Below are positions 76 to 30,346 of a stretch of DNA of 38,765 bases, piece by piece. The stretch lies in IMG/VR virus record IMGVR_UViG_2654587569_000003, one strand, 5' to 3'. This stretch comes from a virus. Its lineage: Duplodnaviria; Heunggongvirae; Uroviricota; Caudoviricetes. Each line of letters begins with the position of its first letter. Positions within the stretch are counted from its first letter, which is position 1. Both the position numbers and the translations under genes were made by a program. A model generated the notes under the pieces. It made no database searches. It had not been told where the DNA came from and saw only the letters and a program-made list of their open reading frames with translations.

Positions 76-3465
<3,390 letters not shown>

Positions 3466-3522
3466 TCATGCTCCATAAACGATAAAACCGCCCGGAGGCG
3501 GTTTCACATAAAACATTTTGCA

Positions 3523-4194
3523 TCAGCGACCAATCACCACAACCTGACCACCGTCCCCTTCGTCTGCCGTGCTGATCTCCTGAGAAACCACGCGTGACCC
3601 CACGCGCATTTCACCGTACAGAACCGGCAGAACATTGCCCTGGGCAACCATGTTATCCAGTGAGGAGAAATAGGTGTTCTGTTTGCCGTTATCCGTTGTC
3701 TGTGTACGGGGAGTTCTGGCTTTCGGTGCCAGCATCTGCGCCACACCACCGAGCACCATACTGGCACCGAGAGAAAACAGGATGCCGGTCATACCACCGG
3801 CCCCAATGGCTGCCCCCCATGCTGCAAGGGTGGCTCCGGCGGTAAAGAATGATCCGGCAATGGCGGCAGCCCCCAGGACAATCTGGAATACGCCACCTGA
3901 CTTGGCCCCGGCGACTCTGGGAACAATATGAATCACAGCGCCATCAGGCAGAGTCTCATGTAACTGCGCCGTTAACCCGGACGTGCTGACGTCCCGCCCG
4001 GCAATCCGTACCTGATACCAGCCGTCGCTCAGTTTCTGACGAAACACCGGGAGCTGTGTGGCCAGTGCGCGGATGGCTTCAGCCCCCGTTTTCACACGAA
4101 GGTCGATGCGGCGGCCAAATCGTTGCAAATCCCCGTAAAGGCAGATGCGCGCCATGCCCGGTGACGCCAGAGGGAGTGTGTGCGTCGCTGCCAT
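3523..4194 (-). CDS. I: Tail tip assembly protein I
   Basis: 223 aa, MAATHTLPLASPGMARICLYGDLQRFGRR matches recalled lambda I; overlaps K 3' end by 103 nt as in lambda. Confidence 0.92.
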   Translation of the reverse strand: MAATHTLPLASPGMARICLYGDLQRFGRRIDLRVKTGAEAIRALATQLPVFRQKLSDGWYQVRIAGRDVSTSGLTAQLHETLPDGAVIHIVPRVAGAKSGGVFQIVLGAAAIAGSFFTAGATLAAWGAAIGAGGMTGILFSLGASMVLGGVAQMLAPKARTPRTQTTDNGKQNTYFSSLDNMVAQGNVLPVLYGEMRVGSRVVSQEISTADEGDGGQVVVIGR

Positions 4195-4840: not shown

Positions 4841-5539
4841 TTACTGCGAAAGTTTGTTAATGGAAAGGAAGCCGCCAAAGTTGCCGACGTTATTGCGGAA
4901 CTTACAACCGCTCAGGCATTTGCTGCATTTATCCTTCGTGATATCGGACGTTGGCTGGTCATATTCATCCGCGACCGCCGGACCGTGATAACCGCACTCA
5001 TCGCCGCGATAGGTCCAGGTGCAGGTGTTGGCCAGCATGATACGTCCCGGAAAAACAGCGCCGTCCGTTTCCGTCGGCGTGGACAGTACAAAAGAGGCAC
5101 TCACCGCGCTCAGTTCGCTGCACTGCTCAATGCGCCAGCGGCTGATCACCTCCTGCTCCGGATCGGCGTTACTGTTTCCGTTGACGAAGTTCACCGCATC
5201 CAGAAAACGGGCGTAAACCTTACGCCGGACCACCGTTCCGCCGACCAGACTCTGCAGATCTTCCGCCATCCCGGTGACCATACCGTACAGGTTAGAAACC
5301 GTCAGCGTGGGGCGCGTACTGGTGCCTTTGCCATTCAGTTCAAAACCACTCCCCTGAATGGGATACGGCTGATACTGTCGCCCCTGCCAGGTGACCGGCT
5401 CACCTTTTTCGTTCTGCTCATTACAGAAAAAATAACGTTCTCCACCGACCTCTGTCAGATCGATTTCCCAGAGCACCACGCTGGCCGACTGCTCCGCACG
5501 GGTGCATTCATTCAGTGTTTCCTGCCGGATATCCTGCAT
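4841..5539 (-). CDS. L: Tail tip protein L
   Basis: 232 aa, MQDIRQETLNECTRAEQSASVVLWEIDLTEVGGERYFFC matches recalled lambda L. Confidence 0.95.
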   Translation of the reverse strand: MQDIRQETLNECTRAEQSASVVLWEIDLTEVGGERYFFCNEQNEKGEPVTWQGRQYQPYPIQGSGFELNGKGTSTRPTLTVSNLYGMVTGMAEDLQSLVGGTVVRRKVYARFLDAVNFVNGNSNADPEQEVISRWRIEQCSELSAVSASFVLSTPTETDGAVFPGRIMLANTCTWTYRGDECGYHGPAVADEYDQPTSDITKDKCSKCLSGCKFRNNVGNFGGFLSINKLSQ

Positions 5540-5572
5540 CAGTTCACCACCTGTTCAAACTCTGCGCTGAAC

Positions 5573-5869
5573 TCAACACGCAACATACTGACCCGCAACG
5601 ACCATTTTGCGCAGGTCACCTTTATCTGCCTGCAACTCATAAGGCGGCGTCCACAGAAAGGACTTCCAGCCCCCGTGCTCAGCCAGAAACGACTCAAGCG
5701 CCGTGGCCTCCCAACGGGAAACAGAAAGCGTCACGCTGTACGTTTTCAGGTCAGCATTCAGCCCGGCAGGCGCACGCTGGGAATAGCCATCACCAAAGCG
5801 CACCTCCCTGACGGAAGGAGCCGATGTCACATCCATCCCGGGTTTCACTTTCCAGCGGAAGGTTTTCAT
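5573..5869 (-). CDS. M: Tail tip protein M, apparently frameshifted near 3' end (possible pseudogene or sequencing error)
   Basis: 98 aa ORF matches lambda M to ...WTPPYE then diverges; lambda-like C-terminus RQIKVTCAKWS.RVSMLRVEFSAEFEQVVN is in another frame and ends in TGATG overlap with L start at 5539. Confidence 0.8.
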   Translation of the reverse strand: MKTFRWKVKPGMDVTSAPSVREVRFGDGYSQRAPAGLNADLKTYSVTLSVSRWEATALESFLAEHGGWKSFLWTPPYELQADKGDLRKMVVAGQYVAC

Positions 5870-20827: not shown

Positions 20828-21265
20828 TCATCGAAGGCATTGCGTCCTAATGTACTCCTGCAAGTAGTTAACCTGCGCGGTTATCCTGTCGATTCCACTT
20901 CGGAGACGGTAATAATTGAGTTCAGCATCTGCTGTAAGTCCTGGGGTTTCTCCATTGCCCATGCCGCTGGCTCCGGTCGTTGACTTTGCACAGGTGGCGG
21001 CGACTTGCAGGCGCTTACGCCCAGCAGAAACATCAGCACGGAGACTTTCGATAGTCGCATTAGCATCAGCAAGCTCCTTTGTGTATCTGGCGTCAAGTTC
21101 TGCTACATCACGTTGCCGCTTCTGCATATCAGCGATGATGGATGTGGCTTTATCGCGCTGCTCTTTGTAGGCGATGGCGTTATCACGGTAATGATTAACA
21201 GCCCATGAAAGGCAGACGATGAGGCAGATGACCAGAACGTAGATAATCGCGGTTACTCTGCTCAT
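20828..21265 (-). CDS. Rz: i-spanin Rz
   Basis: [34 protein letters not shown] matches recalled lambda Rz; ATGA overlap with R stop at 21262..21265. Confidence 0.9.
20881..21066 (-). CDS. Rz1: o-spanin Rz1 embedded in Rz in +1 frame
   Basis: Internal start [20 protein letters not shown] lipobox then proline-rich [16 protein letters not shown]; start choice by analogy. Confidence 0.75.
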
Positions 21266-21759
21266 TGTTGCCCCCACAAACAGACTTCACGCTCAATCTC
21301 ACGGCGAGTCATCAGCCCTTTCCATTGCTTACCGCCAGCGTATGTCCAGCGCCGTAGCTGATCACATGCGCCTTTGATATCGCCCTGGTTTATTTTGCGA
21401 AGAAGCGTCGATGTTCTGAAATTGCCAGCGCCCACGTTGTAAACGAACGAGTAAAGAGCGCCGCGCGTTGTTTCCGGTATATCGACGTTGATGTACGGGT
21501 TTATTTGTCTGGCGACCGTGGCAAGGTCTTTATTCAGGAGGGCTTTGCATTCTGCTTCGGTATACGTTTTACCGGGCATGATGTCTTTTCCGGTGTGTCC
21601 GTGACATACAGTCCATACGCCAACGATATCTTCGTATGGTATGTAGCTGACACCTTCCAGGCCATCGTCACCACTCGGACCAGTGATGAGCACAGACGCT
21701 ATGGCAACAGCCCCACCACCAATAGCAGCAGCAACGGCTTTTCGTAATGATGGAGGCAT
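21262..21759 (-). CDS. R: SAR endolysin R (T4-lysozyme-like fold, N-terminal signal-arrest-release helix), phage-21 type
   Basis: 165 aa, [52 protein letters not shown] matches recalled R21. Confidence 0.9.
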
Positions 21760-21965
21760 TATTCACCTCTCGCAGCCTTGCGCTTATCTTCTTTAATCTT
21801 GAAATAAAGGTTTGTCAGATACGTCAGCAGGCCAAACAGCAGACTCCCCAGCACACCTATTGCCACCCACTGGGACGGAGAGACTTTGTCCAGCAGCTGC
21901 AGTAACCAGTATCCCGTCCCCACCGCTGACGTGGTGTATGACACACCTGTTGTGATTTTTTCCAT
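21759..21965 (-). CDS. S: Pinholin S, phage-21 type
   Basis: 68 aa, ..[43 protein letters not shown] matches recalled S21; single start, no upstream in-frame start. Confidence 0.88.
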
Positions 21966-22007: not shown

Positions 22008-22046
22008 AGAAAAACAAAAAAGCCGCCAGTGTCACCCACTGACGGC
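22008..22046 (-). terminator. Strong intrinsic terminator about 45 nt upstream of S (tR'-like position)
   Basis: Minus strand GCCGTCAGTG-GGTGA-CACTGGCGGC then TTTTTTTGTTTTTC. Confidence 0.7.
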
Positions 22047-22221
22047 CAACGCCGGGAGCCGTGATTATGGCATTCAGGCTCTGCTAAAAATGCCAGATAA
22101 CATTCCGGCCAACCCCTGATTCAGGTTATAAATGACACAATATCTTGACAACATCCGTCACTGTCTGTCAGAAAATGTACTGCCAAGTATAAGTATCATG
22201 TGAAGTACATCTACCCGTTTT

Positions 22222-22258
22222 AGCCAGCGTCCTTCAGAGTGGGCGCTGGCTTTTTTTA
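22222..22258 (+). terminator. Plus-strand intrinsic terminator abutting the nanS-p stop codon
   Basis: AGCCAGCG-N14-CGCTGGCT followed by TTTTTTT; no U-tract in minus orientation. Confidence 0.6.
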
Positions 22259-24109
22259 TTATGCTGCCGGTGCATTTATCTCCAGCACCAGACTTTCTAT
22301 CTCAACGCCATACGCTGCATTTTTTGTAACATCCGTCAGCGTCAGCGCATTCAGTCCCAGTGTCAGACTGTCTTTTATAACCTGGAATGCCGGGCCAGCC
22401 ACTCCATTCAGTTTCGGAGTAACCGTGGCACTGCCGGCGGTGAACACCAGCTCCAGCGTCTGCCAGTCGTTACCGTAATCGCCGAACTCCCCCAGCTTCG
22501 TGTTTCCGGCTTTCCTGTGATGCATCAGATTCACTCTGCCGTCAGTGGTCTGAGTGAAGTAAGACATCAGGAACGGATTACCAGTACCCGTCATCGCCAC
22601 ATCATCAGGAACGGGAGCGTCCGTATACAGATAAATCCCCAGCCCGAACTGATTGTTGGTCAGTGCGCCTGAGAGGCGGAACTTACAGGTCAGTCTGCCG
22701 CCCTGTGTCAGCAGGGTAATTGCGTCATCCACCGGATGCATCAGGGACCAGGTTTTATTGCTCTGCTTGGTGATCTTAAATACACCATCTGACAACTGAA
22801 TTCCGCCATTCTTAATGCTCCAGCCCTGCGCAGCAGCATCTCCGGCTGTCGGCAACAGGGAGATTGTGCGTACGGATGCATCTTCAGACGGCCCCGATGG
22901 CGTGTCGCCGCCGGGCGAGGGTTTGATTTCCGGTGCCTTACCACTAATGAAGGCTAAGGTGCGACCGGCTACGTTCAGAATAGCAGTTGCCATACGATCG
23001 GGAATAATGCCACGACGCGCCCATGAGCTGAAATGCGTCGGGCGATTTGATGATACCCAGTTTTTGTTCGTTCGGGATGCCGAACCGTAATAACCAGACC
23101 CGGCAATATCAGGATCTTCTGACGGGTTGTTTGTCGGTGTATTAACTCCGCTACCATCGGTCATAAAGGGAACAAAATAAATCTGCTGGGATTCTTTACC
23201 TTTATATGCACCATATACCACTTCATATTGCGTACCGTGTTCTTGTTTCCACGCGTATGTCGTGTCGCCACAAATCCAGGGGACTGATGCCGGACTTCCA
23301 CCGTGACACTGCGCCGCCAGCCCGGCAAAGTCAGCACGGAACTGCTGTACCATTGCAAGAAATGCTGCTGGCTGCTGGGCGTAACTGGCATTCGTCATAT
23401 CGAATTCCCCCTGCATCCAGCATATCGCCAGCAAAACGTTTTTCGGGTTTTTCTGCAATGCTGCCTTCGTGCGGAAAAGCAGATCCTGATATAACGGCTT
23501 ACCCACTCCCCAGCGAGCCGAATCCTGACTGGCCCCCGTGGACTCGCTGAATGTCCCCTCCGTGCCCTGGGTGAATGCCGAACCACCACGACAGCATGGT
23601 ACCAGCAGGATCCCCGCATTATTAGGGATATACGGAAGCAGTTTTTTGGCAATATGTAAGCCCTGTCCGACACAGCCGTACTGCCCTTTGCTCAGGTCAG
23701 CCCGGGGATGGTTAATCGTACTCATATCCTGAACATCATGCAGACAATGGTCAGCAGGAATGATGTCGTTAAATACGCATACTTCACCACCGGGAGTCAC
23801 TGTGTTACGACGGGCCAGTTGCTTAATGCGCGGATGGGGCGCATCGTATGAATCCGGAAGCGGAAGCCCTTCACCGTAAGCCATGGCATTGGATTGCCCG
23901 GCCAGTACGATGACGTAGTACCACTCTGGCTCAGTTGCACCACTGACGACCACATCACCTTCTGCTGCAATCGCCTGCATCAGGGTATAAGGGGTTATGG
24001 CCACCGGACTACCAAACGGCTGCCAGCCCTCTTTCAGTTTATGTGTCAGCTTTTCCGCAAGATCTGACGGCGACGCCGCCCTGACAACATCATAGTGTTT
24101 AAATGCCAT
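22259..24109 (-). CDS. NanS-p-like sialate O-acetylesterase (N-terminal DUF1737-like region plus SGNH/SASA esterase)
   Basis: MAFKHYDVVRAASPSDLAEKLTHKLKEGWQPFGSP..VIVLAGQSNAMAYGEG; position between stx slot and lysis genes as in Stx prophages; start at second Met with GGTGGA SD. Confidence 0.8.
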   Translation of the reverse strand: MAFKHYDVVRAASPSDLAEKLTHKLKEGWQPFGSPVAITPYTLMQAIAAEGDVVVSGATEPEWYYVIVLAGQSNAMAYGEGLPLPDSYDAPHPRIKQLARRNTVTPGGEVCVFNDIIPADHCLHDVQDMSTINHPRADLSKGQYGCVGQGLHIAKKLLPYIPNNAGILLVPCCRGGSAFTQGTEGTFSESTGASQDSARWGVGKPLYQDLLFRTKAALQKNPKNVLLAICWMQGEFDMTNASYAQQPAAFLAMVQQFRADFAGLAAQCHGGSPASVPWICGDTTYAWKQEHGTQYEVVYGAYKGKESQQIYFVPFMTDGSGVNTPTNNPSEDPDIAGSGYYGSASRTNKNWVSSNRPTHFSSWARRGIIPDRMATAILNVAGRTLAFISGKAPEIKPSPGGDTPSGPSEDASVRTISLLPTAGDAAAQGWSIKNGGIQLSDGVFKITKQSNKTWSLMHPVDDAITLLTQGGRLTCKFRLSGALTNNQFGLGIYLYTDAPVPDDVAMTGTGNPFLMSYFTQTTDGRVNLMHHRKAGNTKLGEFGDYGNDWQTLELVFTAGSATVTPKLNGVAGPAFQVIKDSLTLGLNALTLTDVTKNAAYGVEIESLVLEINAPAA

Positions 24110-24369
24110 GGTTCTTTCCACCATCTGAAAAATAATTCTTTAAAATACCTGACATGTAATACAGAAAAAACACAAAACCATACCTTAAATAAAAACCTCA
24201 TCATCAAGCAGATATGCATGGATAAACTACAAGACGAGATATAAACCACCCTGCATTTAAATAAACAATAAACAACATCAGAAAAATAATTCTGCTCTAT
24301 GGTTTACAATCAAAAATATCATTTATACTTTTCAGAACATCACCAGCAAGGCATAAACAAGGAAACTAA

Positions 24370-24705
24370 ATGAAGTGGATTGTGATTGATACAGTTATCC
24401 AGCCATCATGCGGAATATCTTTTTCAGTCATATGGAGTAAAATAAAATTAATAATCTGGTATCAATCGGATGCTTTCTTACCTCCTGAAAGTATATTTAC
24501 ACTGACTCACACAGGTATCATGCTCAATAACAAAGTGCTACCTGTAACCATTTACAACGTAGTACCATTCAATAAAACATTCTGGAATTTAATCAAAAAC
24601 AGCCAGGAATGCCCTACAAATACAGATAACGTATTGAATGAATGCTTTAATAACCGTTGCACTCTGCAAATATGTCCTTATGGACTAAAACAACAAAGTC
24701 CATAA
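24370..24705 (+). CDS. Hypothetical Cys-containing protein (111 aa) in AT-rich cargo segment
   Basis: AAGGA SD 9 nt upstream; TTTACA-17-TACTTT promoter-like hexamers at 24303..24331; hairpin downstream; no recognisable family. Confidence 0.45.
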
Positions 24706-24740
24706 GGAGTTTACTCACATCTGACAAAATCAATATAAAC

Positions 24741-24760
24741 AGCCCCTCCGGAGAGGGGCT
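24741..24760. terminator. Perfect hairpin AGCCCCTC-CGGA-GAGGGGCT between convergent cargo ORFs
   Basis: 8-bp stem read directly; flanking U-tracts weak in both orientations. Confidence 0.4.
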
Positions 24761-25137
24761 GGAGAGTGGCGCTATGTGCCATTGCATGGTGCCGGGTGCC
24801 TCCCGGTGAATTCAGTACCAGCACCTGAATCCGCGATTATCCCATATACCTACTCGCTGATTGCCCCTCCGCACAGGTGGATTCACCATGCCAGTTTCTT
24901 TTAACAAACTCCCCGCAAACCAGACAACAGTCAACCGCCTGAATTGTGAAGTATTTAAAAATTTCTCCGGCTAACAGTCTGGCGTTTTCTTTTTCAGCAA
25001 CGGGAAAGCAACAACCACCACACCCGCCACCAGTACACAGTCAGCCAGCACTGACATTATCCGGCTGCTGCAATGCCATTCACAAAAACAGTAAGCAATC
25101 ACTTTTTACCGTAACAGGTGATAATCCAGATATGTAT

Positions 25138-25464
25138 CTACCCCAGATGAGTAATCCGAAGTTCATCCATACCACAGGTCCTGGCTATTCTGTTGTACTC
25201 CTGAACAAGAGCAAATAATTCTGAATTAGCAACCATGAACTCATCGCAAACCCTCTGTATAGCATCACTATTCAGAAGAATAACGTCTCTTCCCGAAAGA
25301 CGATCAGGAGTACAGAACAAAACTGTCAAACGGCTGAAGGCCTTTGCTCGTGCTGCATTGACTATATCAATACGCTGCCTAAGGATGAAACACCCCGACG
25401 CCTCATCAATATTCACTCTACCCACACCATATGAATGATAAATATTTAATACTGAAAAAACCAT
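25138..25464 (-). CDS. Hypothetical protein (about 108 aa from internal Met) in cargo segment
   Basis: ORF track entry; no convincing SD; AT-rich; no recognisable motif. Confidence 0.3.
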   Translation of the reverse strand: MVFSVLNIYHSYGVGRVNIDEASGCFILRQRIDIVNAARAKAFSRLTVLFCTPDRLSGRDVILLNSDAIQRVCDEFMVANSELFALVQEYNRIARTCGMDELRITHLG

Positions 25465-25601
25465 TAGACCGTATAACAAACACTCAATCAATACTTAACA
25501 GAACTTTTATTTTTGACAAACATATAATATTTTCAACAATATACTGAGCCAGGTATATTCCAGTATAAGGCTCTGCCGGAAGAAATCTGGAAGAATGAAT
25601 A

Positions 25602-25678
25602 TGGCGCGTTGTACTGGATTCGAACCAGTGACCGATTGCTTAGAAGGCAATTGCTCTGTCCGGCTGAGCTAACAACGC
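25602..25678 (-). tRNA. tRNA-Arg (anticodon UCU)
   Basis: Canonical cloverleaf by hand: acceptor GCGTTGT/ACAACGC, anticodon loop CTTCTAA, T-loop TTCGAAT, CCA encoded. Confidence 0.85.
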
Positions 25679-25691
25679 ATAATGCAGATAA

Positions 25692-25768
25692 TGGATTGCC
25701 ATCGGGGACCCGGGCCCCACACAGCCAGTTTCGAAAGCTGACGCTCTCTGCCGATGAGCTAATGGCGG
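25692..25768 (-). tRNA. Degenerate tRNA-like sequence (possible tRNA-Arg UCG relic)
   Basis: Good D-arm and anticodon arm (loop TTTCGAA) but acceptor has 2 terminal mismatches and T-loop is CCCGGGT. Confidence 0.35.
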
Positions 25769-25775
25769 TATGTGA

Positions 25776-25851
25776 TGGTGGCCCTTGCTGGATTTGAACC
25801 AGCGACCTGGCGATTATGAGTCGCTCGCTCTCACCACTGAGCTAAAGGGCC
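25776..25851 (-). tRNA. tRNA with CAU anticodon, Ile2 (ileX-like) type
   Basis: Acceptor GGCCCTT/AAGGGCC, anticodon loop CTCATAA, T-loop TTCAAAT, CCA encoded; resembles recalled ileX. Confidence 0.85.
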
Positions 25852-25900: not shown

Positions 25901-26950
25901 TCAAACGATTAAATCCTGAACTTCCCTGACTGTCTGTTCAAAACGTCCTGTCTCCAGCTCAACACCAATCGCACAACGCCCCAGTGCCATCGCCGCTTTT
26001 ACCGTTGAACCTGAACCCATAAAAAAATCTGCAACCAGGTCTCCCGGACGACTGCTCGCGTTGATTATCTGCTGCAGCATTTCTGCCGGTTTTTCGCACG
26101 GATGTTTCCCTAGATAGTACTGCACCGGTTTATGCGTCCAGACATCGGTGTACGGAACCTGCGCCGTCACACCGAAATACCGCCGCAAATTTTTATATTC
26201 ACTCAGCAGTTCCGTATACTGCCGGTTCAGCTCACTGTATGTGCTGACCAGCTGGTGGTGTGGCTTTTCCAGTTCCCCGCGCTGATGTTTTTCTGCCGCA
26301 ACACGCGCAAACAACGCCTGCAATTTGTTGTAATTACCCTCGTTCGGTAACTGCCACTGACTGGTACCAAACCAGTGCGAAGCCATGTTTTTCTTTCCGG
26401 TGGCTTCCGCTATCTGTTTTGACGTTATTCCCAGTGATTTACGCGCATCACGAAAGTAAGAAATCAGCGGGGCCATGACGTGCTGTTTTAGCTCGCGCCC
26501 CTGTGCCACATAGCCATCATCTTTCGGGCGATACGGTCCCTGATAATGTTCTGCAAACAGAATGCGCTCTGTTGCCGGAAAATACGCCCGCAGACTTTCC
26601 TTATTGCACCCGTTCCAGCGTCCGGACGGCTTCGCCCAGATAATGTGGTTCAGCACATTAAAGCGCTCACGCATCATGATTTCGGTGTCAGATGCCAGGC
26701 GATGACCACAGAACAGGTAAAGACTTCCGGCAGGCTTCAGTACCCGCCAGAACTGCGCCAGACACTGGTCCAGCCATTTCAGGTAATCATCGTCGCCCTC
26801 CCACTGGTTATCCCAGCCCTCGGGCTTCACTTTAAAGTATGGCGGGTCTGTGACTATCAGATCGACAGAGTTTTCCGGTAAGGTCTGGATAAATTCCAGG
26901 CAATCAGCGTTGATTAACTCACAACTGGATATTTTTACAGTATTAATCAT
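25901..26950 (-). CDS. Orphan DNA methyltransferase, beta-class N6A/N4C (motif IV DPPY N-terminal, motif I FxGxG C-terminal)
   Basis: 349 aa; LIVTDPPYF and DFFMGSGST motifs in circularly permuted order. Confidence 0.8.
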   Translation of the reverse strand: MINTVKISSCELINADCLEFIQTLPENSVDLIVTDPPYFKVKPEGWDNQWEGDDDYLKWLDQCLAQFWRVLKPAGSLYLFCGHRLASDTEIMMRERFNVLNHIIWAKPSGRWNGCNKESLRAYFPATERILFAEHYQGPYRPKDDGYVAQGRELKQHVMAPLISYFRDARKSLGITSKQIAEATGKKNMASHWFGTSQWQLPNEGNYNKLQALFARVAAEKHQRGELEKPHHQLVSTYSELNRQYTELLSEYKNLRRYFGVTAQVPYTDVWTHKPVQYYLGKHPCEKPAEMLQQIINASSRPGDLVADFFMGSGSTVKAAMALGRCAIGVELETGRFEQTVREVQDLIV

Positions 26951-27529: not shown

Positions 27530-28084
27530 TCAAGACATTTTTTGAGCAAACGATTCTCGCATAGGGATGTATAGCGCATATTCAGCAACAGCCAACCAAT
27601 TAGCAATTCGCTTTTCGCATGTACTAAAACACCATTCCGGGTGCACCTCATTCAACAATTCAGCCATTTTGCGTTTACTCATCCCCCGCCCTTCGTACCT
27701 TTGCCGCAGGATATCAATCAATCCAGGATAACGTGCAAGCGCTTTACTTATCACCCCATCAATGCGTAACGCCTCTGCATCAGTACAGTGAGACAACCAG
27801 CTCTTCTGTCTGCCAGCGATCATCTCTCGCAAGAATGCTTCCAGCTCTGGTTTATCAATCCCTGACTCCCTGATTCTACGCAGGGCTTCATTGATTGCGG
27901 TTTTTGTCAGTTTTTTGGATGCCAGCAACTGATTGAACATATTTCCTGGTTTGCCACCACCTATATACGACCAACGCCCCCACATCCGTAATTTCCCCTG
28001 GATCCAGACGGCTTCCAGCGTTTTTAGACGTAAATGCTCGCCGCTTTTGCCTGTAATTTCCGGGTATATCATATTTACGATCAC
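27530..28084 (-). CDS. Putative late-gene antiterminator Q-like protein (positional call)
   Basis: 184 aa; start overlaps rusA stop by 4 nt; followed by strong terminator; sequence family not recognised by me. Confidence 0.45.
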   Translation of the reverse strand: MIVNMIYPEITGKSGEHLRLKTLEAVWIQGKLRMWGRWSYIGGGKPGNMFNQLLASKKLTKTAINEALRRIRESGIDKPELEAFLREMIAGRQKSWLSHCTDAEALRIDGVISKALARYPGLIDILRQRYEGRGMSKRKMAELLNEVHPEWCFSTCEKRIANWLAVAEYALYIPMRESFAQKMS

Positions 28085-29932: not shown

Positions 29933-30088
29933 TTACTCCTCAGGTTCGTAAGCTGTGAAGACAGCGACCTCCGTCTGGCCGGTTCGGATTCGTACCTCGC
30001 AGAGGTCTTTCCTCGTTACCAGTGCCGTCACTATGACGGTTAAACAGATGACGATCAGGGCGATTAACATCGCCTTTTGCTGCTTCAT
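29933..30088 (-). CDS. hok: Hok-family type I toxin (51 aa), near-identical to recalled HokD
   Basis: Hand translation MKQQKAMLIALIVICLTVIVTALVTRKDLCEVRIRTGQTEVAVFTAYEPEE; AAGGAG SD; absent from track (under 60 aa). Confidence 0.9.
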   Translation of the reverse strand: MKQQKAMLIALIVICLTVIVTALVTRKDLCEVRIRTGQTEVAVFTAYEPEE

Positions 30089-30346
30089 AGCCTGCTTCTC
30101 CTTGACCTTTCGGTCCGTAAGAGGCTAATCTCTATGTGTCGCATAGATATGGCCTCAGATTAATGTTAAGCGTCTTGCAGGACGCGTAATGTTAACTGGG
30201 GCTTTTCTCTATCTGCCTTTTGGTGTTCATGCCTGAGACAGATAGCCTCAAGCACCCGCAGTCATTCTACTTAACTAAGATTTCCCCGCAAACCGTTTTT
30301 GTCCGGCACAGTAAATATCCAACTAAACCAATGGCGTTCGCTGTAT

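Follow-up and report, generated by a model that had tools for sequence, protein, structure and literature searches.

We analyzed a 38,765-nucleotide stretch of tailed-phage DNA (Caudoviricetes; IMG/VR record IMGVR_UViG_2654587569_000003), called the window here, concentrating on positions 24125-25600. This segment lies between a cluster of phage tRNA genes and a nanS-p-type esterase gene, where Shiga toxin (Stx) phages carry stxAB. An earlier note, made from the sequence alone, had described it as AT-rich cargo with two convergent open reading frames (ORFs), a perfect hairpin and about 370 bp of non-coding DNA between them. The two convergent ORFs are present, at 24370..24705 on the plus strand (ORF1) and within 25138..25464 on the minus strand (ORF2). 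The spacer is not non-coding: it holds a gene for a small RNA (sRNA) of the STnc100 family (24920..24731) and a small ORF of the DUF3927 family (25102..24971), both on the minus strand. The segment is highly likely to be a mosaic accessory block within a lambdoid late operon, with a plus-strand iraL cassette and minus-strand ORF2, DUF3927 and STnc100 genes. Its base composition is uneven. The strong AT-richness noted before holds for the iraL promoter and 5' half of the gene (GC fraction 0.31-0.34 at 24050-24650) and does not extend to the middle (0.48-0.49 at 24650-25100) or to the ORF2 end (0.37-0.43 beyond).

ORF1 codes for a 111-amino-acid protein of the IraM/IraL/RssC family of RssB anti-adaptors. 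Residues 1-110 of the 111 align with the NCBIfam model NF007393 (anti-adapter protein IraM) at 162 bits, above the cutoff of 121, and PDB entry 8TWD (IraM) is matched at E = 9e-32. By BLASTP, all 111 residues are identical to IraL from Escherichia coli CFT073. RefSeq uses one accession, WP_000871291.1, for the ORF1 protein in E. coli E2348/69 and in the potB prophage of CFT073. IraM from E. coli K-12 is 62% identical to ORF1 over 107 residues, including four C-terminal cysteines. On these matches we identify ORF1 as IraL, and the earlier description of two unrecognised ORFs of unknown function still fits ORF2 only. To determine how common the gene is, we surveyed 5426 complete E. coli genomes. 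The 611-bp cassette at 24125-24735 is found in 1429 of them at a nucleotide identity of at least 90%, and in every record among the matches listed the gene is labelled IraM.

The iraL gene was named in CFT073, where screening for effectors of RpoS had recovered it (Hryckowian et al. 2014, mBio; PMC4045071). The 5' end of the CFT073 iraL mRNA was mapped in that study by rapid amplification of cDNA ends (5'RACE) and begins ACATCACCAGCAAGGCATAAACAAGGAAACCA. This start matches the window at 24337..24368 in 31 of 32 nucleotides, and over 276 bp that cover the upstream region and the first part of the gene, the window and CFT073 agree in 270. The predicted promoter (24303..24337, plus strand) has a -35-like TTTACA at 24303-24308, a -10 TATACT at 24324-24329 and its start at 24337, the hexamers being read from the sequence. 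Upstream DNA of K-12 iraM shows no similarity to the iraL promoter region of the window. By its match to the mapped CFT073 start, the promoter is of the IraL-type σ70 class and not an iraM promoter. We also looked by eye for a PhoP box upstream of iraL. A GGTTTA half-site is present at 24301-24306 with no second half-site at the expected spacing, and we rejected this candidate. The conserved promoter and start agree with two proposals of the earlier note, that ORF1 has promoter-like hexamers of its own and that the segment looks like an independently expressed moron. The strand on which iraL is transcribed is opposite to that of late transcription.

What IraL does was established in CFT073 (PMC4045071). 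When iraL is deleted there, log-phase σS is lower and has a half-life of about 2.5 min instead of about 5, and the protein interacts with RssB's N-terminal domain in a two-hybrid assay, supported by copurification with RssB. In Shigella sonnei, too, loss of iraL lowers RpoS in exponential phase. In the window, the cassette of about 600 bp (~24125-24735) would be read antisense to late transcription from its own σ70 promoter, with its start at 24337, and would be expressed from the repressed prophage. By binding the RssB N-terminal domain, IraL would keep RssB from delivering RpoS to ClpXP, and the half-life and level of RpoS would rise in exponential growth. This stabilization was shown for the identical protein in CFT073, and from that identity we infer it for the strain that carries the window.

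Like the window, CFT073 carries iraL in a lambdoid prophage, with the identical 111-residue protein and a promoter and start region that is 98% identical. The order of tRNAs, DUF3927, STnc100, iraL, an esterase or DUF1737 remnant, and holin is common to the window and the potB prophage. The two differ in host, that of the window being of the enteropathogenic E. coli (EPEC) lineage, and also in prophage backbone and integration site. The window has a full-length esterase where CFT073 retains only a DUF1737 fragment, and CFT073 has IS200C between Q and the tRNAs together with three well-scoring tRNAs. The CFT073 locus is described as the "potB genomic island" in PMC4045071, where its stx-slot position is not discussed.

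K-12 IraM (YcgW) belongs to the same family, NF007393, and like iraL its gene lies in or beside prophage DNA, as iraM abuts e14. The K-12 iraM and iraL genes align over the coding region only, at 71% nucleotide identity, and their promoters are unrelated. Outside the coding region, the K-12 iraM flanks have no DNA in common with the window and no STnc100. IraM reportedly responds to low Mg2+ in a PhoPQ-dependent manner. IraL works in log phase, with contacts to RssB's N-terminal domain only, whereas IraM contacts both domains (PMC4045071). In K-12 MG1655 (record L004, 6414..8108), iraM is just outside the annotated e14 boundary beside the icdC pseudogene, followed by ymgK, ymgL and ycgX (DUF1398). 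The CFT073 iraL prophage also has a DUF1398 gene (ydfO), which suggests that the neighbourhood of K-12 iraM is prophage-derived.

In E2348/69, iraL is E2348C_1245. The E2348C_1245 mRNA was captured on Hfq with the sRNA Spot 42 (spf) in 11 chimeras under non-activating conditions, in the E2348/69 dataset from ligation and sequencing of interacting RNAs (RIL-seq; Pearl Mizrahi et al. 2021). The iraL fragments of that dataset (NC_011601 1288353..1288689, minus strand) reach up to window position 24736, short of the hairpin. The chimeras hint at sRNA control of iraL, of which we found no earlier discussion. RNA sequencing (RNA-seq) of E2348/69 gives iraL a low count (baseMean ~11.7), compared with thousands for the PasD sRNAs described below. 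This raises the question of whether iraL is effectively silent, being AT-rich and probably repressed by H-NS, so that what matters at the locus would be ORF2, DUF3927 and STnc100 on the late strand, made on induction or as sRNA. The promoter GC fraction of 0.31-0.34 is in line with such silencing, and STnc100 and DUF3927 are much more common in lambdoid phages than iraL. However, the CFT073 cassette measurably stabilizes log-phase RpoS from its native promoter (PMC4045071), the promoter of the window is nearly the same as that one, and enough iraL mRNA was made for its capture on Hfq. We consider a silent iraL unlikely and favor expression of iraL by the repressed prophage.

On the opposite strand and in the direction of the late operon, the STnc100-family gene (24920..24731) scores 123.6 bits with Rfam RF02076, above the gathering score of 47, over the full-length model, 1-206. 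Its place in E2348/69 is NC_011601 1288169-1288358 (plus strand of that record). When 12 copies from related loci are aligned, compensatory changes are found in 12 of the 38 predicted pairs. STnc100 copies are encoded at the same position in 933W, CFT073, JLK-2012 and others. The hairpin seen before is present, with a 9-bp stem (7 GC pairs) and a 4-nucleotide loop at 24761..24740 on the minus strand, followed by TTTATATTGA. In the Rfam STnc100 alignment it is the terminal helix, and in a terminator scan it forms the 3' end of the sRNA as a Rho-independent terminator. With its T-run on the minus strand, it serves the sRNA and is not primarily a terminator of ORF1. There is no other hairpin between the convergent transcripts. 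The NCBI annotation pipeline PGAP places a partial pseudo-coding sequence ("hypothetical protein") at 24776..24901 on the plus strand in both E2348/69 and CFT073. This feature, wholly within STnc100 and on the other strand, is a probable artefact of annotation.

A conserved feature of Stx2 phages is STnc100 downstream of stxB. In Stx2 phage 933W, STnc100 is at 3778-3983, 75 nucleotides past stxB2, and AsxR follows at 3985-4037 on the opposite strand, ahead of the esterase. The same 75-nucleotide spacing is reported in PMC12370729, where a pairing between STnc100 and stxB is hypothetical. The two 933W sRNAs abut, mirroring the STnc100/iraL layout of the window. PasD2, an Hfq-associated sRNA of E2348/69 prophage PP2 (741157-741328), lies between a DUF3927 gene and an esterase gene, a place equivalent to that of STnc100 in the window. 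PasD2 has been described as structurally related to STnc100 in a 2026 preprint of the Storz laboratory; PasD2 itself is below the STnc100 gathering score (no match, record L012). PasD1 and PasD2 are Hfq-associated and abundant in E2348/69, with baseMean values in the thousands. Because these relatives are abundant and bound to Hfq, the STnc100 copy of the window is most likely a trans-acting, base-pairing sRNA. We also asked if it is one of the named Pas sRNAs. It is not, as PasD2 is in PP2, PasD1 is in PP4 and PasC is beyond the esterase, on its far side. Strain JNE141411 (NZ_AP027256.1; record L008, 2686..3665 and 5425..5637) has an unusually expanded array in this slot, with four tandem STnc100 copies and a fifth upstream. 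Its slot also has a gene for a 241-amino-acid AraC-type helix-turn-helix protein, a TolA-like gene and an unannotated ORF2 homologue.

Just upstream of STnc100, the minus-strand ORF at 25102..24971 codes for 43 residues with one hydrophobic helix. It matches PF13064 (DUF3927) at 90.2 bits (cutoff 25) and the PHROGs family phrog_1470, "TciB-like", at 6.4e-12. In CFT073 and E2348/69 the RefSeq label is DUF3927 family protein. The product would be a TciB-like, single-helix membrane peptide. A literature search for TciA/TciB returned only unrelated papers on Trypanosoma genotypes.

ORF2 is the most upstream gene of the minus-strand half. Its conserved unit is 25416..25138, 92 amino acids from a GTG start, so the earlier extent to 25464 is too long. 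Longer forms starting at ATG 25464 or TTG 25491 were ruled out by in-frame stops just upstream of the GTG in diverged homologues. ORF2 matches phrog_2873 at 1.8e-69 over profile positions 1-108 and has no match in Pfam or NCBIfam. In 1185 of the complete E. coli genomes it is present at an identity of at least 95%. It has no PGAP annotation in the roughly 36 listed records at that level of identity, E2348/69 and CFT073 included. About 128 genomes have ORF2 copies that are only 71-76% identical in DNA, and in the two examined the homologue is annotated as a 92-amino-acid hypothetical protein.

The missing annotation, the lack of a Pfam or NCBIfam match and a weak Shine-Dalgarno sequence before the GTG would all fit a chance ORF in the spacer between the tRNAs and DUF3927. 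That ORF2 is no gene is nevertheless very unlikely. The diverged lineages, which reside in other prophages, all retain the GTG start and 92 codons with zero indels, at 60-63% amino acid identity and about 70% identity in DNA. By the Nei-Gojobori method, the ratio of nonsynonymous to synonymous changes (dN/dS) is 0.22-0.26 in frame versus ~0.8-1.2 in the other two frames, and third codon positions differ twice as often as positions 1 and 2. The annotation of the diverged homologues by PGAP likewise speaks for a gene. An exhaustive profile search of 1.84 billion representatives returned only 19 clusters of the ORF2 family at E of at most 1e-3. The distant homologues (91-95 amino acids; E ~1e-10 to 1e-15) share its length and synteny, and keep the motif FS.L(T/S)V.(F/Y).(T/P)PD(R/K). 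An AlphaFold2 model is confident (pLDDT 85) and predicts a helical hairpin with helices at residues 3-35 and 50-81. Judged by its substitution pattern, ORF2 is a real, conserved gene under purifying selection.

The distant homologues are found in modules of the order ORF2-like gene, TerB, DUF3927, holin, holin and endolysin. In diverged prophages, this very small family of helical-hairpin proteins (92-95 amino acids) is always ahead of the TerB-DUF3927 pair and holin. The window lacks TerB, and the gap between ORF2 and DUF3927 is only 35 bp. A tblastn search with ORF2 of a phage collection found it in one record only. Foldseek with the ORF2 model against the PDB gave only generic helical hairpins, among them EmrA, the arm of seryl-tRNA synthetase and designed heterodimers, with a best E of 0.26, and its sequence against the PDB gave nothing below E = 0.16. 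Gene position suggests that ORF2, together with DUF3927, provides a late-expressed envelope or lysis-associated accessory function. In relatives both belong to an ORF2-TerB-DUF3927 trio that directly precedes holin; TerB is absent here. Such a trio could be a three-part late-operon module acting, for example, in lysis timing, envelope stress or superinfection exclusion.

We then compared the slot with that of other phages. The annotated order in 933W is Q, pR', ileZ-argN-argO, stxA2, stxB2, SASA esterase, S and R. The window likewise encodes Q, tRNAs, cargo, STnc100, nanS-p esterase, holin and endolysin. By BLAST, the window is 88.6% identical to 933W in the tRNA region, 85% at the start of the esterase and 88% in holin, and the tRNA cluster at 25602..25851 is homologous in position to ileZ-argN-argO. 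No alignment of the window was obtained to the 933W stretch at positions 2463-3703, which holds stxAB, and no ORF of the segment matches a toxin family in Pfam, NCBIfam or PHROGs. This bears out the earlier view of a late region ordered as in Stx prophages without the toxin genes. Both have, in the same succession, tRNAs, cargo, STnc100, an antisense element, esterase and lysis genes. Unlike 933W, the window has ORF2 and DUF3927 upstream of the sRNA in place of stxAB, and the protein-coding iraL where 933W has the 53-nucleotide anti-sRNA AsxR. It also differs in having a DNA methyltransferase gene between Q and the tRNAs and a Q protein of the DUF1133 type. An Stx-phage record first considered for this comparison, PPwrbA_EH2201, was dropped in favor of 933W as it has no stx at the slot position.

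JLK-2012 encodes Q, tRNAs, tciA, tciB, STnc100, yjhS, S and R, TciA/TciB being a TerB/DUF3927 pair. In JLK-2012 and in the window a DUF3927 ORF and then STnc100 are upstream of yjhS/nanS-p, at 88% nucleotide identity over 24775-25070. The esterase is also common to both, while 24103-24774, with the iraL cassette, is extra in the window and replaces 171 bp. Unlike JLK-2012 and related prophages, the window lacks the TerB/TciA gene. The homology stops at ~25070, inside the DUF3927 ORF, which ORF2 abuts in the window. What mEp460_ev081 has in common with the window is ORF2, DUF3927, the tRNAs and part of STnc100; it does not have iraL. Together with the K-12 iraM comparison, these two point to iraL as a self-contained AT-rich insert of about 600 bp, placed between the terminator of the sRNA and the esterase.

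The stxB-to-esterase spacer of 933W, the conserved "stx flank" of Stx phages, has its homologue in the window at ~24731-24960. Along with the PGAP pseudo-coding sequence, the missing TerB gene, and the IS200C and ISEc13 elements nearby in the E2348/69 reference, this could be taken to mean that the segment is a decaying stx flank or an insertion sequence (IS) remnant with no intact expressed gene. We find that barely credible. The iraL gene is intact, its product is identical to a protein whose function was tested, gene and promoter are conserved in the 1429 genomes noted above, ORF2 is under purifying selection, and STnc100 matches its model in full length. There is no transposase match among the segment ORFs in Pfam, NCBIfam or PHROGs, and no IS-related Rfam family in the window. 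The reference IS elements lie outside 24125-25600 and are not found in the window. The earlier note had allowed that the segment might prove to be such a remnant; a conserved stx flank does make up part of it, beside intact genes.

Over the whole segment, the best match is E. coli O127:H6 E2348/69, 99.9% identical in full length by megablast (NC_011601 1287489-1288964). The segment is matched at a coverage of at least 80% in 863 of the 5426 complete E. coli genomes. In the E2348/69 RIL-seq tables its NC_011601 coordinates are within prophage PP5. By this match, the window is the lambdoid prophage PP5 of EPEC E2348/69 or a near-identical relative. IS200C and ISEc13, which the reference carries between esterase and holin (record L001, 1628..3889), are missing from the window at ~22014-22021. 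The source is therefore a close relative or a different isolate and not the reference sequence itself.

All late genes are on the minus strand: Q-like, methyltransferase, tRNAs, cargo, esterase, holin and lysozyme. The Q-like DUF1133 protein is encoded at 27530..28084 and an N6 DNA methyltransferase at 25901..26950, between the Q-like gene and the tRNAs. The gene order given in the earlier note agrees with this layout except for the methyltransferase, which it omitted. ARAGORN predicts tRNA-Ile2(CAU) at 25776..25851 and tRNA-Arg(UCU) at 25602..25678, the pair scoring 72.5 and 70.1 bits with the Rfam tRNA model. Between them, in the argN position, is a degenerate tRNA (~25695..25768; 22.2 bits, threshold 29) that ARAGORN and PGAP missed and that is tRNA25 in the original E2348/69 annotation. 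CFT073 and 933W have an intact tRNA-Arg at the argN position. The downstream boundary of the slot is the esterase gene (22259..24124), coding for a 621-amino-acid nanS-p-type protein with the Pfam domains DUF1737-SASA-DUF6645. Its RefSeq label is "SASA family carbohydrate esterase" and it can be aligned with the 933W esterase. Holin (21759..21965) and lysozyme (21262..21759) follow.

The PasC sRNA of E2348/69 (NC_011601 1290909..1290832) maps to window 22180..22258 on the plus strand, in the gap between the esterase stop (22259) and holin (21965). On the minus strand, 22205..22229 is an exact match to the published PasC Northern probe; a terminator (CCAGCG...CGCTGGCTTTTTTT) comes next. PasC is antisense to late transcription, directly past the esterase. 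Elsewhere in the window, a sok antitoxin RNA is encoded at 30086..30257 on the minus strand (Rfam, 106.7 bits) beside a hokD-type toxin gene, and the DicF sRNA at 38296..38347 on the plus strand (Rfam, 76.7 bits).

Taken together, the block would have two transcriptional halves: iraL on the plus strand, and ORF2, the DUF3927 ORF and STnc100 with its Rho-independent terminator in the late-operon direction on the minus strand. The iraL gene would converge on the terminator of the sRNA, holding the antisense place that AsxR has in 933W. Several observations weigh against this account. The -35 spacer of the iraL promoter is short (15 nucleotides) and a generic consensus scan missed the promoter. 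The low iraL RNA-seq count is the sole expression datum at the locus, and iraL may be nearly silent there. One pair of a conserved STnc100 helix is broken in the window copy, and in the portions of the E2348/69 RIL-seq supplements that we searched, the PP5 STnc100 copy was not found as expressed or Hfq-bound. On the plus strand, in the direction of iraL, the hairpin at 24740..24761 has no T-run. The roles proposed for ORF2 and DUF3927 come from gene position only, the fold search being uninformative.

In the convergent layout iraL is antisense to Q-antiterminated late transcription with only the STnc100 terminator between them. For this reason iraL could be shut off at prophage induction, and the arrangement could be a switch that ends RpoS stabilization at that point. 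That ORF2 founds an overlooked accessory function and that the layout of the locus acts as a switch is, taken as one claim, doubtful.

As iraL is already published as an RpoS stabilizer and STnc100 is a curated sRNA family, little new biology is added here, and novelty is left only in ORF2. More than 1100 complete E. coli genomes carry this conserved small gene, which the closely related records examined leave unannotated. The locus also has a protein-coding moron, iraL, in the antisense position of the 933W anti-sRNA AsxR. In EPEC-type and uropathogenic E. coli-type prophages, the slot holds a regulator of the general stress response and an sRNA in place of the toxin. This illustrates the stx slot of lambdoid prophages as a general loading bay for host-modulating cargo.

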